Below are positions 37,743-51,100 of a stretch of DNA of 63,865 bases, in pieces. The stretch's first letter is position 1, and the number at the start of each line of letters is the position of its first letter. The DNA comes from Aplysia californica (lineage: Eukaryota). The translations under genes were made by a program, and so were the position numbers. The notes under the pieces were generated by a model, which made no database searches, had not been told where the DNA came from, and saw only the letters and a list, made by a program, of their open reading frames with translations. Location: positions 2,744 to 66,608 of the forward strand of contig NW_004797343.1 in the NCBI RefSeq assembly GCF_000002075.1, given 5' to 3'.

Positions 37743-38464
37743 CCCTCTCATGCTCATGCTTTTTATTTTCCCATTTGTACATCGAGTGTTTCTACATCAG
37801 GGATTTTTTGTTGTGGTTTGCTCCTTCTGCATCTTTTTGTGTTGTTTTTGTTTGTCATAGTCTATTCCTAGAGAAATATGATGGTTTTCACACTGATTCA
37901 TTAAACATGTTCTGTTGCTGGGTTTGTGTTGATGTTCTTGCTTCAAATTTTCTACGCAAAATGTCTTGATATTTTTTGTTATTTAACTCTCATCAGTTGG
38001 ATCTAGTATTAATTTAAATGATTTCCCTGAACTTCCAGAATGAAATCTGTGCTGCCATTCGAAATTTTTTGTAAGTTTCTGTATCGCTGACAAATTTGGA
38101 TCTAGATCTATTGGCAACATTGTCAAGGCGGATAGTGCGATTGAGAAGGAGGTGTGTTGTAGAAGGATTTGAATGCAGCACTCTTGACTGGAAAGTGACT
38201 CAGATTTTACATCTAAAATCGTCGGGGATACAATTCACTGCCACTAGGGGGGGAAAAAGTTGAATTTTGAATTCTCTCAAAGTCTATTATTAGCTTGATC
38301 AGTTTTATAAATATGGATATGGAAGACTAGACAGAAATGTGTATTTAATTATAGCCGAGGTGAAAAGGATATGCTAAAGTAGTAGTGATGTTGTAAGGAA
38401 GTGACTGTACTACATCCTGAAAGTTTTATTTCAACACAAAATGTCTTGGTGCCCAACCACACAG

Positions 38465-38716
38465 GCCAGGATATCCCCCGTGGACCCTACACTTTGGCAG
38501 GCTTGCCCCACCACCCGCAGATGGACCCCTTGATGAGCTACCGTCTGGGCATGTACCCACCGGGCTCCCGCGAGCGTCTGGAGATGGAGCTGGAGCGGGA
38601 TAAACGAGAGCGAGATGCCCGTGAGAGAGACATGAGAGAGAGAGAACTAAGGGAGTTGGAGCTACGGGAGAAAATGAAGGCCGACTTTGAGCTCAAACCC
38701 GGTATGATGAAGCCAG
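38465..38716 (+). CDS. RERE: Atrophin RE-repeat exon (RERLEMELERDKRERDARERDMRERELRELELREKMK); donor after 38701 or 38716
   Basis: acag acceptor, phase 1; two in-phase donors, G|GTATGA and CAG|GTGAGA. Confidence 0.9.
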
Positions 38717-39629
38717 GTGAGAAGTAAAAGTTTTCTTTTCTTTGTAAAAAATTGTTTTTTGTCTGCTTCCACTACAAAGTAGATTACTGAACCCCACAAG
38801 TGTGTGGTATCTCGTAGTTGTTGCAAGAAAAATAATGGGGGGGGGGGGGGGGGGGGCTTGTTACTCCTTTATCTCTGAACTAAATGGCAAGACTACCAAA
38901 GTGTAGAAAGTATATATTCATGGTGAAAACAGTTTGGTTTCTTTCTCTTTTTATTTCTCTACTCCAAATTGAATAGTGATGTAGTGGGTTGTATGCAGTT
39001 GAACCTGTCAAAGACAATCACCTGTACAAACAGCCTCTTTCCACTTCACTTTTGCTTTATTTCGATATTGAAATGACTCTGTCAAAGATGTTCACCTAAG
39101 ACAGCTTTCCCCTAGCTGGATGGTCTTTTTGAATAATTTTGGCCGTATATTGTCGCTGTTGCAAGAAGGATTAGTTGTTTTTTAAATTTTGTGTCATGTT
39201 AAGTAAAAGTATAGTGCACATCTTTCCTGTTTCGAACAAATTGAGTTACACTTGCTTTAGAGAGTGACCAAAAGTAACCTTCATCAGGTTATTATGATCT
39301 GTTGTTTGAGTCAGTTTGCTGATGCTGGAAGTGGTGTTGATCTCTCCAACCACTGTTGATGAAGTAGTCTCTTTTTTTGCCCTGCATGCTCAAAACAGAA
39401 GTTCAGTCCCATATGAGGAAAACATTTATTAAAAATCTCATTCAAGATAGGACATGCAAGTTCAAAGCAGCCCACCTCATGAACAAATTAATGGTGTAGA
39501 TAGAGACATAACTCACTTACAATATTGATATTGGGGATGGAAGCAGCCCACCTCCTAATTGATTTGACTTGTGGCCATATTAGTGTAAAACTGACAATGT
39601 TTGGGTTTTTCCCCCTCTGCGCTCCCCAG

Positions 39630-39851
39630 GTCTAGAGCGCCTCCTGCCCCCTGGAGCAGCCACACAGCTGACAGACCCGAGCTGGCTGGATATCCAGAGA
39701 CGCATGGGCTTCCCTCCCACGGCCGGCGGCCCCCTAGTGCCTGGTGGGCCCTCTGTCAGTGCCGCGGGCTCCCACTTGCCGGGTGTGTATCCTCCTGTCA
39801 GCTTAGCTAGCGATCTGGTCGCCAGGGAGAGAGAAAAACTGGAGAGATATG
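39630..39851 (+). CDS. RERE: Atrophin exon (GLERLLPPG...SLASDLVAREREKLERY)
   Basis: ccccag acceptor, G|GTGAGG, 222 nt, phase 1-1, open. Confidence 0.9.
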
Positions 39852-41076
39852 GTGAGGAGCAAGCCCTTCCTTTCTTGCCCTCTCTTGCCTCCCTCCATGT
39901 CTGTGTGAGAGGGTGGGGTGGTGTTGATGTTTCTCTCACTTACTGTCGGTGCGCGCATGCATGAGTGTGTGCGTTAGGGGGCAGACTTATTTTTCTCTTG
40001 CCTCCTGTGTGTGTGTCTGTGTGTTTTAGGTGGTGGCTTTATTTCTCTTTTGCCTCCTATATGTATGTGAGGGAGTGTGTCGGTGTTTGTGAGTGAGACT
40101 GATACTGGTCTTGTTTCTCTCTTGCTGCTCCTGCTATGAACTCACCTCCATTACTGATCTGGGAAAACCAAGTACATTCCGTCATTGTTAGGCTTCTTCA
40201 AATGGTTGTGCAAATATTGCCCTTTTATATTCAACATGCAATAGTGTTGTTCCTATCGTAGGTTAGATACTGCAAAGAGCATGAATGAAGTAAACACTCC
40301 GAAGCAGGCAAATGTTTTCATGGATATTTTGGGCAAAGTTGCTTATGCAAAATTATTAACTACTTTGAATTTAAAAGTTGCGAAAATCAGCTTTCAAACC
40401 AATCGAAATATGGGGGGGGGTTAAATGGAACTTTAAAACTTTTCATGAGACGTTAAGGATATTCGGTCTAAAACTTGTAGTGTTCCCATCTGTCTGTTGA
40501 CAGGGCTATTATCTGTGTTTGCAGTAAGATCTGTTGTAGTGAGAGAGTGTGGGTGGGTGGGTGTGGTTGTGTATGCACTATGTGTGGTTGCTTGAAAGGG
40601 CCAGCTCTTACGTATCTGCTGTGTTGCTGTTGTTGTAGCTATGTGTTTGTTGTCACACTGACTCACTGTTTACAAGAGTCAATGGCCTGTGGTCTCCAGC
40701 ATTACGATGCTATAGTGTGACTCCTGTTAACCGCACTATCTAATAAATGTACTCTTATGCTGATAGACTCGCTCTTGTTCTTCTCTCTCTCTTTATCCTA
40801 AATCTTGGGAATGTTGCAAGGTTTGTGAATTTGACTTCCAAAACCCTGCACATATGCTTTTCACTACAGTGGTTGGAGGGTGCCAGTGCCACTGGTAGGT
40901 CTCACTTCTTTTCTTTCCATTTTTAAAATTCTGTCTACCTTGCTTTTTTCCCCAGTGCTAAATGGCCGTTATTGTATTTATGTGCTGTTCCTTACTTCAA
41001 CTCAAACTAAACTTTCCACTACACGAGGTCTGCAAGTCTTTTCCAACTCCTTCAACTATACTTTCCCCTACACTAG

Positions 41077-41457
41077 GTTTGGCAGCCAGCTTTCCCCAAC
41101 TAGCGGCCGACATGTCGTATGCCAGCGCCGTTGAGCGTCTATCAGCGGAGCGCCAGGCAGCAGAGAGGCATGCGGCGGAGCGAGAGCGGGATCGGGATCG
41201 TTTGGCCGCCCTGGCTAACGACCCGGTGGCCAGGCTACAGCTGGCCGGGGCAGCGGCGGCAGCCACGCAGCACGCACACACACACACACACGCACACTCG
41301 CACACACACCTACACCTACACCAGCAGGAGGTGGCCCATGCCCAAGCTGTAGCCCACGCCCAGGCCCACGGCCTGGCCCCGCCGGCCTTCCCCCACCCAC
41401 TGGCCGCCCACGCTCAGCACCTGTACCCTCACCACCCTCTGGCTGCGGGCGGACCAG
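41077..41457 (+). CDS. RERE: Atrophin exon with [15 protein letters not shown] and HX repeat ([19 protein letters not shown])
   Basis: ctag acceptor, CAG|GTATAG; matches RERE ERLAAER..DPLARLQM..HSHIHSHLHLHQQ. Confidence 0.95.
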
Positions 41458-42693
41458 GTATAGTAGGGCGAATCCACTTACACTGCAGTGCCGTCTGCTG
41501 GTGTGATGTCTCACAGGAGAAACGTGGAGTGTGGACTGCGAAATAAGAGCAGGCAACCAAACGTATATTCCGGTACTTATAAATGACCTTGTAGGTTGAG
41601 GAAGTCTACATTCAAACAGCCCCCTTCCCAGATCTGACAAATTCAGAGAAGAAACAACACGTGCAGATCTCGACAATTGTATGTTTTCAATTAGAGAGTG
41701 CATAGAAGTTGTCCTCTCGCTGTAAGTACAGCGCGTGTACACTTACTTTTGACGACAAAACTTGGGGTTGGATTATTGAAATTGTTGTGCACCAGCTGAC
41801 TTTGTTTTTTGCAGCTCTACTTTTCTTTGCAAGGTGATGATGGTTTTCTTTCTTGGAATGGTCAGAAGAACTGAGTTGTACATTTTTGTGAGAAGTCTTG
41901 AGCAGTTATCAGTTTCTTTCTGCATGTCGTCTTTTGGGTGAAATTTGGTAAAGTTTCTGGTTTGTTTCTGGCCTGTGTAGGTTGAGATCATGAGCTGTTG
42001 GAAGATTCTGAAAGGTTTTAGAGATGCTTAGCTTTCAAGTAACTAGGTGGCTCCAATGTGTCTTTGAGTGTTGAGGGCTACTATGGTTGGTCTGGCCATT
42101 TTCTGTCTTCTCTCGACCATCTCTGGATGTAATGTCTATGATGATGATGTTGATTTCTTGTTTCTTTCTTGAAGTACACGTGAGGCTTTCAGACATATGG
42201 CTTGTGACCCTGATTTGTGCAGAATACGTGTTTTTGTTTCCAAGTGGTCATCTTTTGGTTATGGACATGGAAGTCTTTGACTACAATTATCAATTCTGTT
42301 GGTTAAGGAGGGTAATAGTTTCGCCAAATTCCTGTTGTAGGTCCTGCGTCCCTCCCTCCATCCTTTTCATTTGTTCCCTCCCTCCTCCCCCTCCCATGGT
42401 GTGCTGGCCCTGTGTGTTGCTTTGACTACTGTGTCATCTTTTACGCTGACTCATGCCCTCACTGCTCCTCTCACATTACTTCACGGGTGGTAGCTGGAGG
42501 GCACCTCTAGTAGGTCTTACTCCTTGTCTTTCCTCTCTCTGTTGTTTGTGTGTGTGTGTGTGTGTGTGATGTCTGGCTTTTCCTCCTGCCCTCCCTGCAG
42601 TACAGGGTGGTCCTGGTGTGTCCATGTGCCTCTCCCTCCCCCTCGTGTGTGAACTCAAAGACTGAACCCAAACCCCCCACCTTGTCATTGCAG

Positions 42694-42909
42694 ATGGTGG
42701 TGCAGCGCCCGGGGCTGGGAGCGCCCCTGCTGGCAGTAGCCTGGGCTCTGAGCACCTGACCAGCCGACTGGTCTACCAATATTACTCTCAACGCCTCTCT
42801 AGCGAACAGCATATATTTATGCAGAGAGTCGTCAACGAGTGCTACCTCCGCACAAAACCGGAGACTCGGCCAATCATAGATCCCAACCATTTGATCTATC
42901 AGTTCTCTC
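42694..42909 (+). CDS. Candidate alternative cassette (or alternative terminal) exon of Atrophin
   Basis: ttgcag acceptor, C|GTAAGT donor, 216 nt, phase 1-1, stop-free in the required frame. Confidence 0.6.
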
Positions 42910-45449
42910 GTAAGTGAAGAACTTGCTATCACAATTCCAAAATGGCTGTGTCCGTTCTCTCCCTCTCCCACCCCCCTCCCCCCACCAATGCTCGCTGTTT
43001 GTGCGACCCTCATTAGATTTCTCCCCTCTTCCCGACAGATGTATCTGATTCGTATCCACTTGCGTCAGTTTGTGTGAAATTCTGTTCATTTTTGTTTTTT
43101 TCTTTTGCTGCTTCTGATTTCAGTTTCAAGTCCTGCTTTTTTGTAACTGAGTTTCTTGAATGACTAGAAGTGTAGCCCTATTGCTGTGTTGTGGATTTCG
43201 TTGTATCACTTTTTGTTTTTTCGTAGATATTTAGTGCTTTGTATTGTTCCAAAAATTGCTTTGATATCCTTTTCTTCATTTTGCACTGACCTTGCCTTAT
43301 TTAATTCTGTCTGCACCAATTCTTAGACATGATTCACTCACACTCAGACCTGGCTCACTCACTTTCCTCTCTTTTTTTGTTGCAAAAGCTTCCTTTTTTA
43401 TGTTCTGCATTTATTTGTATATTCCTAAAGGGTCATCAAAATTGATTTTAGTTTCCCTTTTCTTTTTCCTTGGACATCTAAGACAAGTGTTCTGGTGTGG
43501 TCTGCCTATTCTACTTCTTTCCAGTTTTGCGATTGTTCTGATCTGTTCCTGGTGAAATGTGGTTTTTATTGAGCCAAAAGTTAAGGTTAGTTTCTACTAC
43601 GATCAATAGGTGGAAATCTGTGAAAAATATATGTACATAGCTGAGGAAAAGGTTTAAGGAGGAAGACGTCTTTCACATTGATGTGATGATTGGAATGACT
43701 GTGGTAGCAGTTTGTTAAAGTCTGTGTTAAGTCCTTTATGAGTGGATTCTCCTGTGCTATCCAAGTCCTATTTACACTGAGTGCCCATAGATCTGTTGGT
43801 TTTGTGCTGGATGTTAATGCGGTTGTCCTGTGTTCAAGTCGGTTTGGTAGCTTTTTTTAACTTGTGGTGTTGGGAAGTTTCCATTACTCTCCATCACTCA
43901 GATCAGTTTTCTAGGAGATAGAACTTCCTGCCTCTTGAATTACCTTGAAAGAGGCATTGAGACTACACCATACTGTACATTCTTGTTTTTATCTTTGTCA
44001 CTTCGCAGTACTTTGGGAGATATTTATCATCCAACTGTGAGATGGAGGAGGGACTTCTACCTTCCTCCATGGTATCTGCATGTGAGTTTGTGGCCTTATA
44101 ATATGCCATGCCTGATTCATGTGTGGTTACCAGTGTGTAGTCACTGCTGTTTTCCATACAGAAGCGTTGAGAGAAATAGAGGTGCAAATACATTTGTACA
44201 CACAAGATGCAGACTTTTAAAAGCGGAAGTTGTCTGGTTGGAAACTTAAACATTCTCTTCTATTCCTGTTATTTGTAGAGGGAATGAATGGCGACAGTTC
44301 TGAAGTCATGGGCTGATAACCTCAAATTGAAGCTTGAGGAAGGGACTGAATTAATGTTTATCCGAACTGGGGGAAACCAATACTTGCTGATTGCAAAATT
44401 TATAGTTAAATTTTTCTTGCCATTTTCCATAGTGAGATGATGGATTCCCATTGGTTGGGAAGTGTACTGTTGCCCCACACACTCCACGGTTCTCTGTGAT
44501 TTGATGTTGTGCTTATGGTTTTGTTTTGGATTTCATTTTTAAAAAAAAAATTTATGCATACCATTTATGAAAATCATTATACCCGGAAGAGGGGAAGGAT
44601 TACATTGTTCCTGTTGTGAGAAAAATAAGCAGCTCAAATGGTTTTTACCCACCTTGTAAAGCAGGCTCCAATGGAGTTACATTTTAGTCTTGCTCCAGTG
44701 ATATGTGAGGCATCAGGCGCTTGTCAAAATAATGAAATTGTAGAAACGGGCATTTTCAGTCAGTTTAGCAATTTTTATTGAAATTTTGTTTTTTGGCTCA
44801 ACTCCTTTTATGTTCTTAGAAAAACACATTTCTGTGTGAATGTTACTGAAAAATGTTGATAAATGGCACAAAATATGTAATTTTTAAGTCTTCACGGACT
44901 CTCAAGCTATTGCAGTTACCAAACTTTGCGGCCATTTTCTCATTAATTTTACCTCTTACACCTGATGACCCCACCTCTTTCAATTGCAGACTTCTGTTTG
45001 AGATAGATGGGTATTTTTTTCATTGAAAGCAAGGCAAATGAATTATTCAGATGATATCATTAACTCCACTTGCCCAAAAATTGACGAGTGCCTGATTCCA
45101 TCGCGTCGTGACACATGAGCTGTGTGACCTTTGTCAAAGATGTGAATTTTTTGGTGAAATCGACAAACATTTCTATAAATGTTGTGTTGGACCACAGCCA
45201 TGATTAGAATTGATGCATTGTTGTTATTTTTCATACTATTGCAATAGTTGTCTGGATTTCTCTTTTTCAGTTGAAAAGAATCTGAAGCCATACTGAATTA
45301 TCATGTTATTTGCAACTTTTTGAATCCCAAAATTATCTTGGTAGTTTGGAAATGAAAATTTCCAGTGAAAAGTTTCAAATAGGTGCATAGTGCGAGTAGG
45401 GTTGATGTGTTAACAGAGAGCGATAAAATCCCCTGACCATCTATTACTG

Positions 45450-45634
45450 CAGGCTTGCCAACTGTCCCAAATTTACCGCGACTGTCGCGGGTTTGGCAGT
45501 CAGGAATTTGAGAGCCTTGTCCCATGCACTACACCAAAATCTGTCCCACTTGATGTAACTTTGTTCAGTTTTACATCATCTGATGTTATAACGTTTGCTT
45601 CCCTGATTGGGTTTTGAAGAAGTTGGCAAGCCTG
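45450..45634. mobile_element. hAT-like MITE
   Basis: 14-bp TIR CAGGCTTGCCAACT...AGTTGGCAAGCCTG; TSD not preserved. Confidence 0.7.
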
Positions 45635-46074
45635 ATGTTGTCGATAAACTCAAGTGTGTGATTTTGTGTGTGTGTGTGTGTTTGGGGGGGCAATTTAAAG
45701 CATGGTTTTTTCTGTTCTGATTGTTGTGAGAGGAGTGAGATTTTTTTATTTCTCACATGCTTTTGGTCTGCAGATGTAGAAGGTAAAGCTAGGTTCAGAT
45801 CACCGATCTACACCTTTGGTTAAATAAACTTGAATTGTTAATGTTAACCCCCCTTATTTCCTTCTCATGGCAGTTAAAATTGGTTCTTACACAGAATGAA
45901 AGAGATAATAGGACAGGGCTATAAAGTAACATTTGAGTATTTTAAACCACACTCTTTTTTTTTTTCTCTTTGATGACCTCACATGTCAGGAACAAGAGTA
46001 TAATAACACTACATGACACTGATGTTTTAGTGTTTGTGTGTATTGGGAAGGGGGTGGGGGTGCTATTTTATTAA

Positions 46075-46281
46075 CCCTATTTGTACGCCTGGAGTCATTT
46101 TGTACCCTAGGGGTTGTATTCTACACATTTTAGAATACTTCTAGTGCGAAGATCTCTTTGAAACTTTCAGTATTTCTCAAAAAATCATTTTGACAGACTG
46201 GTATGCAAAGCGTACAGATCGAATTTATGAGTACATTTTTTTTGTATGGATAGGATAGTAAAACACGACGTACAGATAGGG
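46075..46281. mobile_element. piggyBac-like MITE
   Basis: TTAA-CCCTATTTGTACG...CGTACAGATAGGG-TTAA. Confidence 0.8.
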
Positions 46282-46957
46282 TTAATTAATTACTTTAAGG
46301 GAATAGAAATAGTGACTGAAAGAAAAGTGTGTGAGAACAGGCAGTAGGGCTACAGTGTTTTGTCATGTTCAGCTTTTATAGCTGTGTCCTTTCAGTGACT
46401 GAACAGCTCCTTTACACATGGCTTCATGTTCGGCTTCAGGTCCTTTTCAGTACTTTGTTTAAAATACTAAAATGTGGCTTTATAGCCCTGTACTATCTCA
46501 AGGTGAATGGTAGTTGGATAGTAATATTGTCAGGTAATGGATACAAAGCTTTGATTGGTGGGTGCATTTTCAGGAATTTGTTCAAAATTATATGTCTACA
46601 TGTTATTACTTTGGAAGCATGTAATTTTGTTTTTTTAATGCTATGGGTGTTGAAAGATGCCTATGGATGGCACTGCACTTTTAGATCTGTCTTTTCTGAC
46701 TATATGATGGTTGGTGGTTGCCTTAGTGTGATTTCCTCCTTTATTGTTCCTGTTTTCTTAATCTTATTGTCAACTGGTAATTTGCTGTGCGTCTCTATGA
46801 CTGCGACTTAGGGTGGTCTTAAGGTGCTTCTCATAGTTTTTACTTCATCTCTTTCCATCTATTGTTGCTGTCTATCAGTGTTACTTTTTCCCAGGGTTTA
46901 GTGACTGTTATAGTGTAGGTGTATTTTTTTTTACCCAAATGGAGAAACAAATCTTGA

Positions 46958-47130
46958 GTGGGTTGTTGGTGGGTGCTCTTTCTTGCTTTTTTTTTTTTTC
47001 TCTTTCTTTCCTTACTTAATGTGTATCGTCTTTTCTTTGTGTGTTGCTCTGTAGTAACGTCTCGACACTTACATTACATATTTGTGTTGCAAGTGCCGTA
47101 AAACTCTAACAAAAACAAAACAAAACAAAT
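46958..47130 (+). mobile_element. Family B retroposon, ending ~40 nt upstream of exon 47169
   Basis: gtgggttgttggtgggtgctc start; gttgcaagtgccgtaaaac(aaaac)n tail. Confidence 0.6.
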
Positions 47131-47168
47131 GTGAGGGCCCCTCAAAAGCTGTAAACCTCCATCCCCAG

Positions 47169-47356
47169 GAGCTGACCCTCTAGCCGCAGGTCCCGGAGCC
47201 TCTGTCCCAGTGTCCTCCACCAACCCTCTGTCTGTGCTGCCGCCTGGTGTGGCCCACCACCCTCTGCTGGCCGCCGGTGGCGGGAGGGAGGAGCTCTTGT
47301 CCAGAGACCTCTACCAGAGAGGTGGGCCCTTCTTGGACCCAGCGCTGGCTCATCAG
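47169..47356 (+). CDS. RERE: Atrophin penultimate coding exon (GADPLAAGPG...DLYQRGGPFLDPALAHQ)
   Basis: ccccag acceptor, CAG|GTTGGT; DPLAAGP resembles RERE DPLTAGP. Confidence 0.88.
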
Positions 47357-48091
47357 GTTGGTGGATAGTCCAAGCTTTAGTGAAGGAGATAAGATTAAGA
47401 ACAAAATTTTGACTGAGAAAAAAATGTGCATGTTTATATAAAATATATGTTTGTTTTATGTCCCTAAAAAAACAACCCCCCTCCCCGGGGCAGTGCCACT
47501 GATTGAAGTGTCTTTAGGCCATTCCCAAAGGGGGGGACATATCTCGTTCAAGCATAGTAGAATTGTAATGGGCTGATTCATGTCACGCTCATAACTGTGC
47601 CTGATCTACAACAGGGAACTGCTGCTTTTTCTTTCCTGATCCTTTCTATTGTCATTTTCCTCTACTTCTTTTGTATGTTTGTCACTCCCTTGTGACCTGC
47701 TATTTTGGGGTGCCTTGATAGTCGAAGCAGACCTTGTGCTGTTGAAGCTAGAGTGGTGAAGTCTAAGTCTGATTCCCTATAAAGACTTCAATGTTGACAC
47801 CCACCCCTTGGCACTCATATGACCTTATGCAGTTGGAGCGCCGTAAAACCATCTACTTTTTTTTTTTAATGAAAAAACAACCCAGATTTTAGACGTTTTT
47901 GTAAAAATTTGATAGCTAATAATTTCCAAGCTTCCACTTTGTTTACTTCTCTGTATCAGAAGTTAAAAGGTTTTTTTGAAATTCTATATTAAAAGAAAAC
48001 AGTTTGGTAATCGTGCATCCTTCTGTTGACTTCTCTGACCGTGATGCTTGTGTGAGTGTGTGTCTCACTCTTGTTCTCCATGTGTCCTCAG

Positions 48092-48184
48092 CTGTCTGCC
48101 CAGGCAGCCGCCCATGAGGCTCTTCAGAGACATTTTGCCATGGAACGAGAACGCTTTGGCTCCGCCGGACACCTGCCCCACTAG
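48092..48184 (+). CDS. RERE: Atrophin last coding exon (LSAQAAAHEALQRHFAMERERFGSAGHLPH*)
   Basis: cctcag acceptor, phase 0, TAG at 48182-48184; resembles RERE [21 protein letters not shown]. Confidence 0.88.
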   Translation: MSAQAAAHEALQRHFAMERERFGSAGHLPH

Positions 48185-51100
48185 CCTAGTAGGGTGTACT
48201 GCTCAACAACACCTCGCTACCACGACTAACTCCCAAAGGAGGTGGGATGGGGAGTTACTCGTTGAACTCAGGAGAGTGCAAATCTTGTGACTTTGTGTGA
48301 AAAGAGTGGATAGGTTTGACCTGCAAATCACCATCAGGTTTCATTTGAAACCAGAATTTTCTCTTTATGACCAGATTCTGACTTCACCGAGTCTCTTCAT
48401 GTGCATGTGTTCACCCTTCGGACACTCTCTGACCTGTGCCATGTGACCAAGCTCCGAACCCTAAACCTTCCTGGACAATGGTAGAGTGAGCTTGGTGTTC
48501 TTTATTGTGTGTGTATGATATGTTGAACGAAATTGATATTTGAATTGAGCAGAAAGTTGCTCAGAAAATGGCAGTATAAACTTGCTGCAGATTGTTGGAT
48601 GATGTGAGGCCGTTTTTTTGGTTGTTTTTTTTTCTTCTTGCCTGCTAGTGGAAGCAGCTGAGACAAATAGTGTTGTAATAGATTGTTCAAGGTGTGTACA
48701 ATGTTACTATATATAGCTCCCTTGATCAAGCTGTTATGTGGTGTTTACCTTGTTCCCACACCCCAACATAGTTGTCCTCTGAATCATGAATGTTAAAAAG
48801 AAATAGTTTTGCTTTGAACCCTACCTTGTTGTTTTGGTTTGCAAGGCCCAGGAAATAGTCATTGTCACCTGAACCTCAGAAAAATCCCAGACTGTTTTAA
48901 CTATTGTATTCTCCCCTTATTTTTTCCCCCATCTCCTCTCTCTCTCTCTCCTCCCATATCCTGACGTCCCTTGCGTGACTGAGCTAACTGAAGCCCATGT
49001 CGCTGAGAGACAATTTCCAAGTGGTGCTGTTTCAATGGAGAAAAATCACTTGATTTTCTTTGTTCATGTGTGGTTCAAACTCACACCTCGGGCATCTCTT
49101 ATGGCGCATAATGGCCCTGGAGTGTGGCAGACATTATTGGTGTTCACTGTACATTTTTATGCACATCTCCAAGGATTCTGGTGTTTGTAATTTGGCCCGG
49201 TTTGTTGATGAATGGATTGATATGTTCCCCACTGCACTGGGTGAACCAGTGTGGGTTGTTTGCAAAACTCATACGCAAAAGCAGTTATTCATAAATGTAC
49301 AGGAGTCCTTCTATTTTTGTTGTCATATATGGAATATAATAATTTATACTGAGCCTGTTTTGAAAGCATGTACAGATTTGTCAATTTTATGGTGCAGTTG
49401 TTCTTTGTTTGTTTTCTTTTCGCCCTTTCTATGCTTTCTACAACTGATCTATACAATCAATGTTCTTGTGTTGGTGAAAAGGACTTAACGCTGTGAGTTA
49501 TTTTTCCCTCAAGTTGAACAATGTAGGTGATTCATAATGGGAGCTTCAGAGTTCAGTGGAATTTGAAGGGAGATGAACAGTGGTGGACAGGACACATATA
49601 GAAATAATGTAGTGCAAGTGATACTGAAATATTTACATAACTGAAAGCTGTTGCATGAAACATGTAGTCTGTATTTTTTAGTTGGACAATTACGTTTCAG
49701 CAGTTATGAATGTTACTTGCGTAGAATAAAAAACAATGAAAGATGCTATATTTTCTAATATTTTTTGTTAACTGTTTTATGTTGGGTGGGAACTGAGTCA
49801 ATGATTATAATTTTGGATGCAGGCAGAAAAACTTCAGTTTTGTCCCGCAGTGAGAGAAGTGTAGAGAAAGTGGTGGTGGTAATAAGTCTCTGTGGAGGAA
49901 GGAGCCAGGCAGGGGTCAGTTGTACAGTCGTGCGGTGGGCTGGTTGCTACTGTATATATATAAGACTCATCATATTTCTGTTCCTTATGGAAGTTGTCAC
50001 AGTCCTCAAAGTGTTTGTGTTCATGGAAGAAATGGCACATTTTGTACACTTCAGTCTAACGGAAGAGACTGTGCTGGGTATAAATAATTGAGGATACTGT
50101 CAAGAACAACATTTGGCAGCCTAAAATGGAGGAACTTGTGTGCAAAGATGGGTGCTGTTGGTAATTTCTGCTACCATGTGAGCTGGCGTGCTTTTCCCTA
50201 TCTACTGGGCCAGAGAGGTGTGTCAGTGGAAACAAGGTACTACCTGGTTGTACAACACCCGTTTTGTTAATTGTCCATCACATCCTGAACTTCTGGCCTC
50301 ATCTCTATAGTTATGTAACTTGTGTTGTCTGTGTGTATAGTGATGAAACAACCATGATAAATTGACAGAATGATGGGACAGGTGTATGTTCAGATATTTT
50401 TTGGGTGCAAACATTGTAGATAAGAGTTGAGATGAGGTAACAGGTGGTGAGGGACGTCACTGTCTAGAGTGTCTAGAGTATGTTGTTGTACAGTCTGAGG
50501 GCGTTTGTTTTCTTCACCGCTTGTTTTGTTGTCAGTAATGTATGCTTATATGAAATGAAATGTATTATACTCCAGAATGCATAATTGTTTGATGGTTACA
50601 CCGATTCTGTTTGTGTCTGAACATCAAAGATTTCTTTGACGTGTACTTCCTCCCCTACAGTTTTTCTTGCCCTGTCCTGTCTGCGTTGCTCTTCCCTGTT
50701 ATTGGTGGCTGTGTACAGCTACAGCTTGTCAAGCGGCCAGCCTAAGTGAGGCACAAGTTGGAGAGAATGGCTCTCTCAACTCATCAACAACGACACTCAC
50801 AATCTCAGATTTTGGGTGTTTCAGTATTGGTGTCTTTATAGCATGAGTTTGACCAGATGAAAAATGAAATGACCACCCTGTGTTGGGATAATGCAATGAT
50901 GGGGGGGAAATGTACTATACTGATAGTTCTAACAACAGTTTGAAGGGGGTCACTCACTCAGCTCTGGGCAACTTGTGTTTTCTTTAGACTGGCTGCAAGT
51001 ATTTCTGTGTATTTTTTAAAATTTTAATAGCTTATATTTCTTGAACCTGGCTTGCAAATGTCCCATATTTAATGTTGTCTTTACTCAGACTGTTCCTGAT

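Follow-up and report, generated by a model that had tools for sequence, protein, structure and literature searches.

Two Atrophin exons spliced in each other's place

A 216-nucleotide exon in the 3' region of an Atrophin gene of Aplysia californica (exon B) is spliced in place of the adjacent exon that encodes the histidine (HX) repeat (exon A), and we judge it probable, at roughly 0.8, that the two are mutually exclusive, with a predicted two-helix module taking the place of the histidine-repeat segment in a swap that would alter the set of cofactors recruited. The best reading of the evidence is of an old mutually exclusive pair of apparently non-homologous exons, which, we infer, seldom if ever occur together in one transcript. 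The window (by which we mean the whole 63,865-nt stretch of contig NW_004797343.1 that was analyzed) contains the following features in this region.

39630..39851, + strand: exon U, 222 nt, phase 1-1, ending at donor D2 (after 39851)
39783..39851, + strand: exon U tail, 69 nt, dropped upon splicing from the internal donor D1 (after 39782, GTGTGT)
41077..41457, + strand: exon A, 381 nt, phase 1-1, with ERLSAER repeats and the HX repeat
41271..41321, + strand: codons of the HX histidine repeat, 17 residues, a CA-rich tract within exon A
42543..42591, + strand: intronic (TG)11 tract and its flank, 100-150 nt upstream of exon B
42694..42909, + strand: exon B, 216 nt, phase 1-1
47169..47356, + strand: exon C, the downstream exon common to both forms
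48092..48184, + strand: exon D, the coding part of the last exon, ending in TAG

By its PF03154 domain, RE dipeptide repeats, and HX repeat, the gene is a member of the Atrophin/RERE family: exon A matches the Pfam Atrophin-1 family (PF03154) with an E value of 3.2e-8 (32.7 bits against a cut-off of 29.9), and the RE dipeptides are visible in the translation at 38580-38670. Its relatives are named RERE-like and have BAH, ELM2, SANT, and GATA domains toward their N termini. Exon B itself is laid out as the first-pass annotation had described it, with a TTGCAG acceptor ending at 42693, an exon of 216 nt in phase 1-1, and a read-through past the donor that adds RK before reaching a TGA at 42915-42917. 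The donor, which the same annotation called perfect, earns that description in its intronic half only (GTAAGT at 42910), since the exonic side reads CTC. Exon B is single copy in its own genome, a second match there having been dismissed as noise (E value of 0.32, with two stops).

Exon B in Aplysia transcripts

We examined 7 of 24 public runs, four of them as contigs (X11, X12, X13, and X16, from four studies) and three as raw reads (X21 to X23). The RNA label of X11 to X13 is a guess and X16 is unlabeled; that they derive from RNA is implied by their exon-exon joins at GT-AG ends. In each of the four contig runs, a contig covers 42693-42910 with no other letters and departs from the genome at both splice sites, establishing that exon B is real, represented exactly, and spliced at both ends. 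The letters following it are in all four cases those of exon C, such that the junction 42909->47169 anticipated by the first-pass annotation is in use, and the letters preceding it are in all four those of exon U, leaving the companion prediction, a junction from exon A to exon B (41457->42694), unsupported.

The donor joined to exon B is D1 in X11, X12, and X13 and D2 in X16; i.e., the shorter exon U precedes exon B in three of the four contig runs. Removal of the exon U tail is in frame and costs 23 residues, including a conserved VYPP motif. The shorter form is absent from the stored proteins of relatives, and a bivalve locus (L005; see below) has no GT at the position of D1; use of this donor may be lineage-specific and coupled to exon B.

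Run X12 contains a record that ends at 39782 (record 1; depth, 18.6), a record that starts at 47169 (depth, 17.3), an exon B record of 276 nt with about 30 letters on either side of the exon (depth, 10.8), and an exon A record of 510 nt (record 2) in which the exon is preceded by 98 letters and followed by 34 (depth, 10.6). From these lengths and depths we derive two alternative paths, one through the exon U tail plus exon A and the other through exon B, and the two middle records fit alternative paths at equal depth, in which the adjacent exons A and B are each spliced alone between the same flanks (those of exon A being deduced from lengths). By the same length arithmetic, D2 is joined to exon A in X12, and the longer exon U occurs in this run solely with exon A. 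Among the joints listed, the exon A form is observed in X12 only, and contigs of exon A are absent from the matches listed for every contig run, even X12. The joint from exon C to exon D (47356->48092) is present in X12, whose record 5 (5,686 nt) starts at exon C and implies that the 3' UTR (from 48185) is about 5.4 kb long. The raw-read runs, which lack coverage of A and B and have almost no depth on the exons of the gene, are swamped by intronic repeats and uninformative.

The A-for-B swap across molluscs

A search with the C terminus of the Biomphalaria protein as the query returned 21 proteins, to which cluster look-ups added isoforms; the full collection numbers 123 proteins, 78 of which span the A/B region. 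Scoring of these 78 yielded 41 with A, 30 with B, 7 with both, and none with neither. Among the proteins designated "isoform Xn" (45 from 11 species, chosen by name and excluding one partial record that does not include the region), 31 have only A, 14 have only B, and none has both. In all 10 species for which both forms are available (two gigas-group oysters, C. virginica, Mizuhopecten, Mercenaria, Ruditapes, Mya, Sinanodonta, Potamilus, and Patella vulgata), A and B interchange between identical flanks and only the middle differs. Logan open reading frames running across the region (n = 10) partition in the same manner, with seven containing B, three containing A, and none containing both.

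Exon A is followed by all or part of exon B in eight gene models from four species (P0007, P0015, P0081, P0066, P0068, P0072, P0104, and P0114), one of which, P0068, was scored as A yet holds part of B. The one nemertean protein found contains only A, which says nothing on the absence of B from that group. A tree built from the flanking regions sets several B-form Atrophins (P0027 and P0038 to P0042) apart from the named gastropods and from the two clades of bivalves, at a position that it does not resolve; they may come from a third class of molluscs or from a different lophotrochozoan. The type of splicing is well known, and exon B, indeed both isoforms, is already present, unremarked, in the automated annotation of several other molluscs.

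These counts bear most directly on the possibility that A and B are independent in-frame cassettes, in which case some transcripts would carry both exons or neither, the either/or pattern being no more than the commonest outcome. All seven exon combinations that we tried keep the frame to the normal stop, eight gene models do contain A plus B, the A-B intron of the window (1,236 nt, with a longest AG-free zone before B of 33 nt) poses no steric block, and contigs drop rare variants, so rare forms with both exons or neither could go unseen. Independence of the two exons is nonetheless improbable, given that no named isoform and no Logan reading frame has both and none of the 78 proteins has neither, that the records with both exons are labeled "hypothetical" or "low quality" or stem from a single model, and in part have ragged joins (although two of them are RefSeq XP records), and that the A-B intron of one bivalve locus (L003) is only 52 nt long. 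Far less probable still is that exon B serves as an alternative last exon ending at the TGA at 42915-42917, which the first-pass annotation had also entertained. That stop stands two codons beyond the donor, and in the bin at 42821-43131 all three raw-read runs have a minus-strand depth of about 1, but the contigs of all four contig runs continue into 47169 and none extends past 42910. Moreover, neither AATAAA nor ATTAAA occurs within 42910-44700, read ends do not pile up, and the RK or SK of the read-through is merely the GTAAG donor in translation, with a read-through length that varies widely in relatives. Splicing of A or B, one in place of the other, is the reading that we retain.

Conservation and origin of exon B

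As a coding sequence, exon B has been kept in both gastropods and bivalves, lineages whose split dates to the Cambrian, more than 500 million years ago. Conservation amounts to 53-67% of aligned residues across these groups and about 80% in the nearest snails (the nearest named relatives being Biomphalaria glabrata and Candidula unifasciata): the peptide of the window is identical to those of two snails at 51-53 of 66 aligned residues and to those of a limpet and bivalves at 29-37 of 54-56, a degree of identity close to that of the constitutive exons. A HMMER search of 1.84 billion proteins recovered 17 relatives of peptide B at E values of ≤0.001, and the named matches of the protein-library searches with B include no non-molluscs. 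Over 43 codons, two bivalve loci have 23 differences that are synonymous and 4 that are non-synonymous (dN of 0.038, with synonymous sites saturated); judged from such sequence comparisons, exon B is under purifying selection.

The encoded peptide begins with a variable lead-in of Gly, Ser, and Ala, followed by a conserved core of about 55 residues and a conserved DP..HL.YQF tail, and 11 columns, several of them aromatic, are invariant in 14 sequences. Several clam-type sequences (P0016, P0017, P0101, P0107, P0034, and P0036) carry a 15-20 residue insertion of Gly, Ser, and Pro in exon B, which sits directly after the second predicted helix and demarcates the hairpin from the conserved tail.

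The first-pass annotation had suggested an old internal duplication as the source of exon B on the basis of short motifs that it seemed to share with neighboring exons. This proposal fails to find support: a B profile (compared without the shared last exons that two of its rows contained) gives non-significant results against exon A, against the last exons, and against the upstream exon, and the echo between B and DPALAHQ in exon C is no better than chance, being equaled in 82 of 200 shuffles. Derivation of B as a diverged tandem duplicate, whether of exon A or the last exons, concerns origin only and is compatible with mutual exclusion; it is possible, but the odds are against it. The two exons share a phase and a position, their best ungapped match (QRLTNEQ against ERLSAER) has a p value of 0.04 on one shuffle test, and 23 of 300 single pairs exceed a z score of 3 against A. 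However, the p value on the other shuffle test is 0.195, reversed B scores nearly as well against A as does true B (15.3 versus 16.0, ungapped), 24 of 200 shuffles equal the gapped score, 16 of 420 pairs exceed the same z score against unrelated last exons, and hhalign assigns the B-A relationship a probability of 0.1-0.2%. Exon A passes the Pfam Atrophin-1 model and B misses it. With no significant similarity between A and B and with unequal lengths (381 versus 216 nt), a non-homologous exon pair is, on these alignments, the default reading.

Predicted structure and possible role of the exon B module

The suggestion at first pass that exon B supplies an alternative module unlike known ones is borne out insofar as the peptide has no Pfam match at E values of ≤1. 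AlphaFold2, applied to 14 sequences, places helices at residues 2-17 and 22-39 of a 57-residue core (mean pLDDT of 70), followed by a low-confidence tail, and the core is predicted to form a helical hairpin (helix-turn-helix). The fold has no Foldseek match at E values of ≤0.001, its best VIA-align matches are to generic helical hairpins (Z score of 5.2), and neither a sequence match in the PDB nor a candidate in a search of near-length proteins with the B core was obtained. Atlas features of the B segment of a relative point to RERE fragments (0.92 and 0.90), which may reflect the whole protein, and the predicted self-association score of B is 0.01, a value that is uninformative either way.

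The B form would keep the Atro-box and the RE repeats (labels that we assume for the retained segments), lose the HX motif, and offer a different protein-binding surface. By analogy with other HX proteins, the B form may be a cofactor switch with altered partner recruitment, a role for which we see the chances as evenly balanced. We assign a much smaller likelihood, below that of independent cassettes, to the B form being a loss-of-function or damping isoform that merely removes HX, with peptide B as a spacer. Such a spacer would account for B having no family, solved relative, or specific fold, and some bivalves do tolerate the insertion of 15-20 residues in B. But skipping of A alone would drop HX in frame, no such form was found, and a constrained replacement has been kept instead, from which we argue that B itself binds something; in addition, B matches the constitutive exons in its conservation and has the invariant columns noted above.

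How the either/or choice may be enforced

Because double inclusion and double skipping are both in frame, exclusion must be imposed on the pre-mRNA and not by the decay of frameshifted messages. For comparison with the window, we used three loci (L003, L004, and L005) that are assigned to bivalves by their likeness to clam proteins; L004 and L005 overlap, so two species are represented. Another candidate, L006, was rejected as an exon B locus, as it shares with peptide B only a chance 10-residue word located in a prokaryote-type methylase; this metagenome contig encodes, at 270-1703, a 477-residue fusion of ParB-N and N6/N4 DNA methylase.

The A-B intron measures 88 nt in L004 and L005, compared with the 52 nt of L003 and the 1,236 nt of the window, where an AG lies at -35 from exon B. 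The intron of L003 is so short as to point to a steric form of exclusion like that in PMC4165533, and in these two bivalve species an A-B intron of 52 or 88 nt would hinder splicing from A to B. The U-A intron of the bivalve loci contains, in addition, a conserved element, as follows.

L003, 373-567: conserved bivalve element in the U-A intron, with a 14-bp outer stem
L004, 174-388: the same element

Alignment of this element scores 74, compared with at most 30 in 30 shuffles, and its 14-bp stem encloses a 17-nt stretch that is complementary to the acceptor of exon A, with pairing energies of -26.7 and -28.6 kcal/mol that are better than those of 25 of 25 shuffled sites in each case. The element would mask the exon A acceptor by base pairing. 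The acceptor-pairing arms contain no compensatory changes between the two species, a conserved partner for the exon B acceptor was not found in the bivalve loci, and the element has no match in the introns of the window. Rfam has no match in L003 to L005 and three in 38000-49000 of the window, all far below the gathering score.

In the window, the CA-rich HX codons of exon A and the TG tract before exon B would form a helix that silences A, or else splicing factors would control the choice. The segment at 42543-42591 can base-pair with 41248-41296, which lies within exon A (-69.9 kcal/mol), and the flanks of the TG tract pair better than all but 39 of 2,000 random and 70 of 2,000 shuffled sequences (p values of 0.02 to 0.035 in a post hoc test). 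The (TG)11 is the longest (TG)n on the + strand of the window, which has four tracts of at least six repeats in 64 kb. As a means of choice, this helix is a tentative and rather doubtful candidate, a hint drawn from a common microsatellite and a post hoc test. Two further pairings that emerged from duplex scans of the four splice sites were set aside as low complexity: that of a GU-rich stretch at about 40528-40570 with both acceptors and that of 39898-39933 with the B acceptor (-36.2, versus -35.5 for the best of 12 shuffles). The motif TGCATG occurs once in each of three introns of the window and is not conserved in the bivalve loci, except for one copy in L003. Since the length of the A-B intron is specific to each lineage, enforcement appears to have changed between lineages while the pair was kept.

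Relationship to known systems

The mollusc exons belong to the same family as the C termini of ATN1 and RERE (PF03154), with exon A sharing both the Atrophin-1 match and the HX repeat; the difference is that, in molluscs, the HX exon can give way to a second, conserved exon. The HX repeat is a hot spot of the human disorders of ATN1, RERE, and AUTS2, and its variants cause CHEDDA (ATN1) and a CHARGE-like disorder (RERE); PMC9747544 describes the mechanism of these variants as unknown and the action of HX in Atrophins as open. A natural isoform without HX receives no mention in the available text of the cited HX literature. A natural pair differing solely in HX versus a replacement module offers a clean comparison for finding HX partners, and exon B contributes a conserved module that is new and about 55 residues long.

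According to two preprints, mutations in the HX repeat of AUTS2 disrupt p300 binding and activation (bioRxiv 10.1101/2021.03.30.437620), and FBRSL1, which has nearly the same HX repeat, represses and recruits CoREST/CTBP (bioRxiv 10.64898/2026.10.20.760506). The likeness to the mollusc gene is that related HX-containing regions set transcriptional output; however, the AUTS2/FBRSL1 switch is between paralogues that both keep HX, whereas the mollusc switch would be by splicing within one gene and would remove it. Because FBRSL1 represses with the same repeat, the direction of the effect cannot be predicted from the absence of HX. One could go further and suppose that a switch predating the split of snails and clams, between an HX form and a form with a new folded module, provides within a single gene the activator/repressor choice that vertebrates divide between AUTS2 and FBRSL1, and that in this snail the HX codons double as an RNA arm silencing their own exon. 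We consider this combined scenario unlikely, and more so than the helix by itself.

There are precedents for both kinds of enforcement. Exon 10 of Drosophila Atrophin (Grunge) is spliced at about 1:1 through a stem that masks an acceptor (PMC2724269), a case that is also tabulated in PMC6027157. This stem resembles the acceptor-masking element of the bivalve loci, but the fly event is a choice of alternative acceptors that adds 22 residues and is not an exon swap. In Caenorhabditis elegans, 7 of 29 mutually exclusive clusters are non-homologous, and steric exclusion through short introns is a known mechanism (PMC4165533). The mollusc pair is like those non-homologous pairs in having unequal lengths, no clear homology, a preserved frame, and, in one bivalve, a very short intron; it differs in that this short intron is lineage-specific. 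The molluscs provide an example of an either/or pair that is old and seemingly non-homologous, with enforcement that differs between lineages. No description of the A/B swap was found in the Atrophin/RERE splicing literature, with subscription journals, supplements, and the isoform tables of genome papers lying outside the scope of that survey.

Repeats in the neighboring introns

The B-C and C-D introns of the window contain multi-copy repeats (44690-45310, 45930-46290, 47070-47120, and 47480-47860) that attract thousands of reads at 90-99% identity. Two 40-nt inverted arms, at 45908-45947 and 46457-46496, are 90% complementary and are presumably MITE-like.
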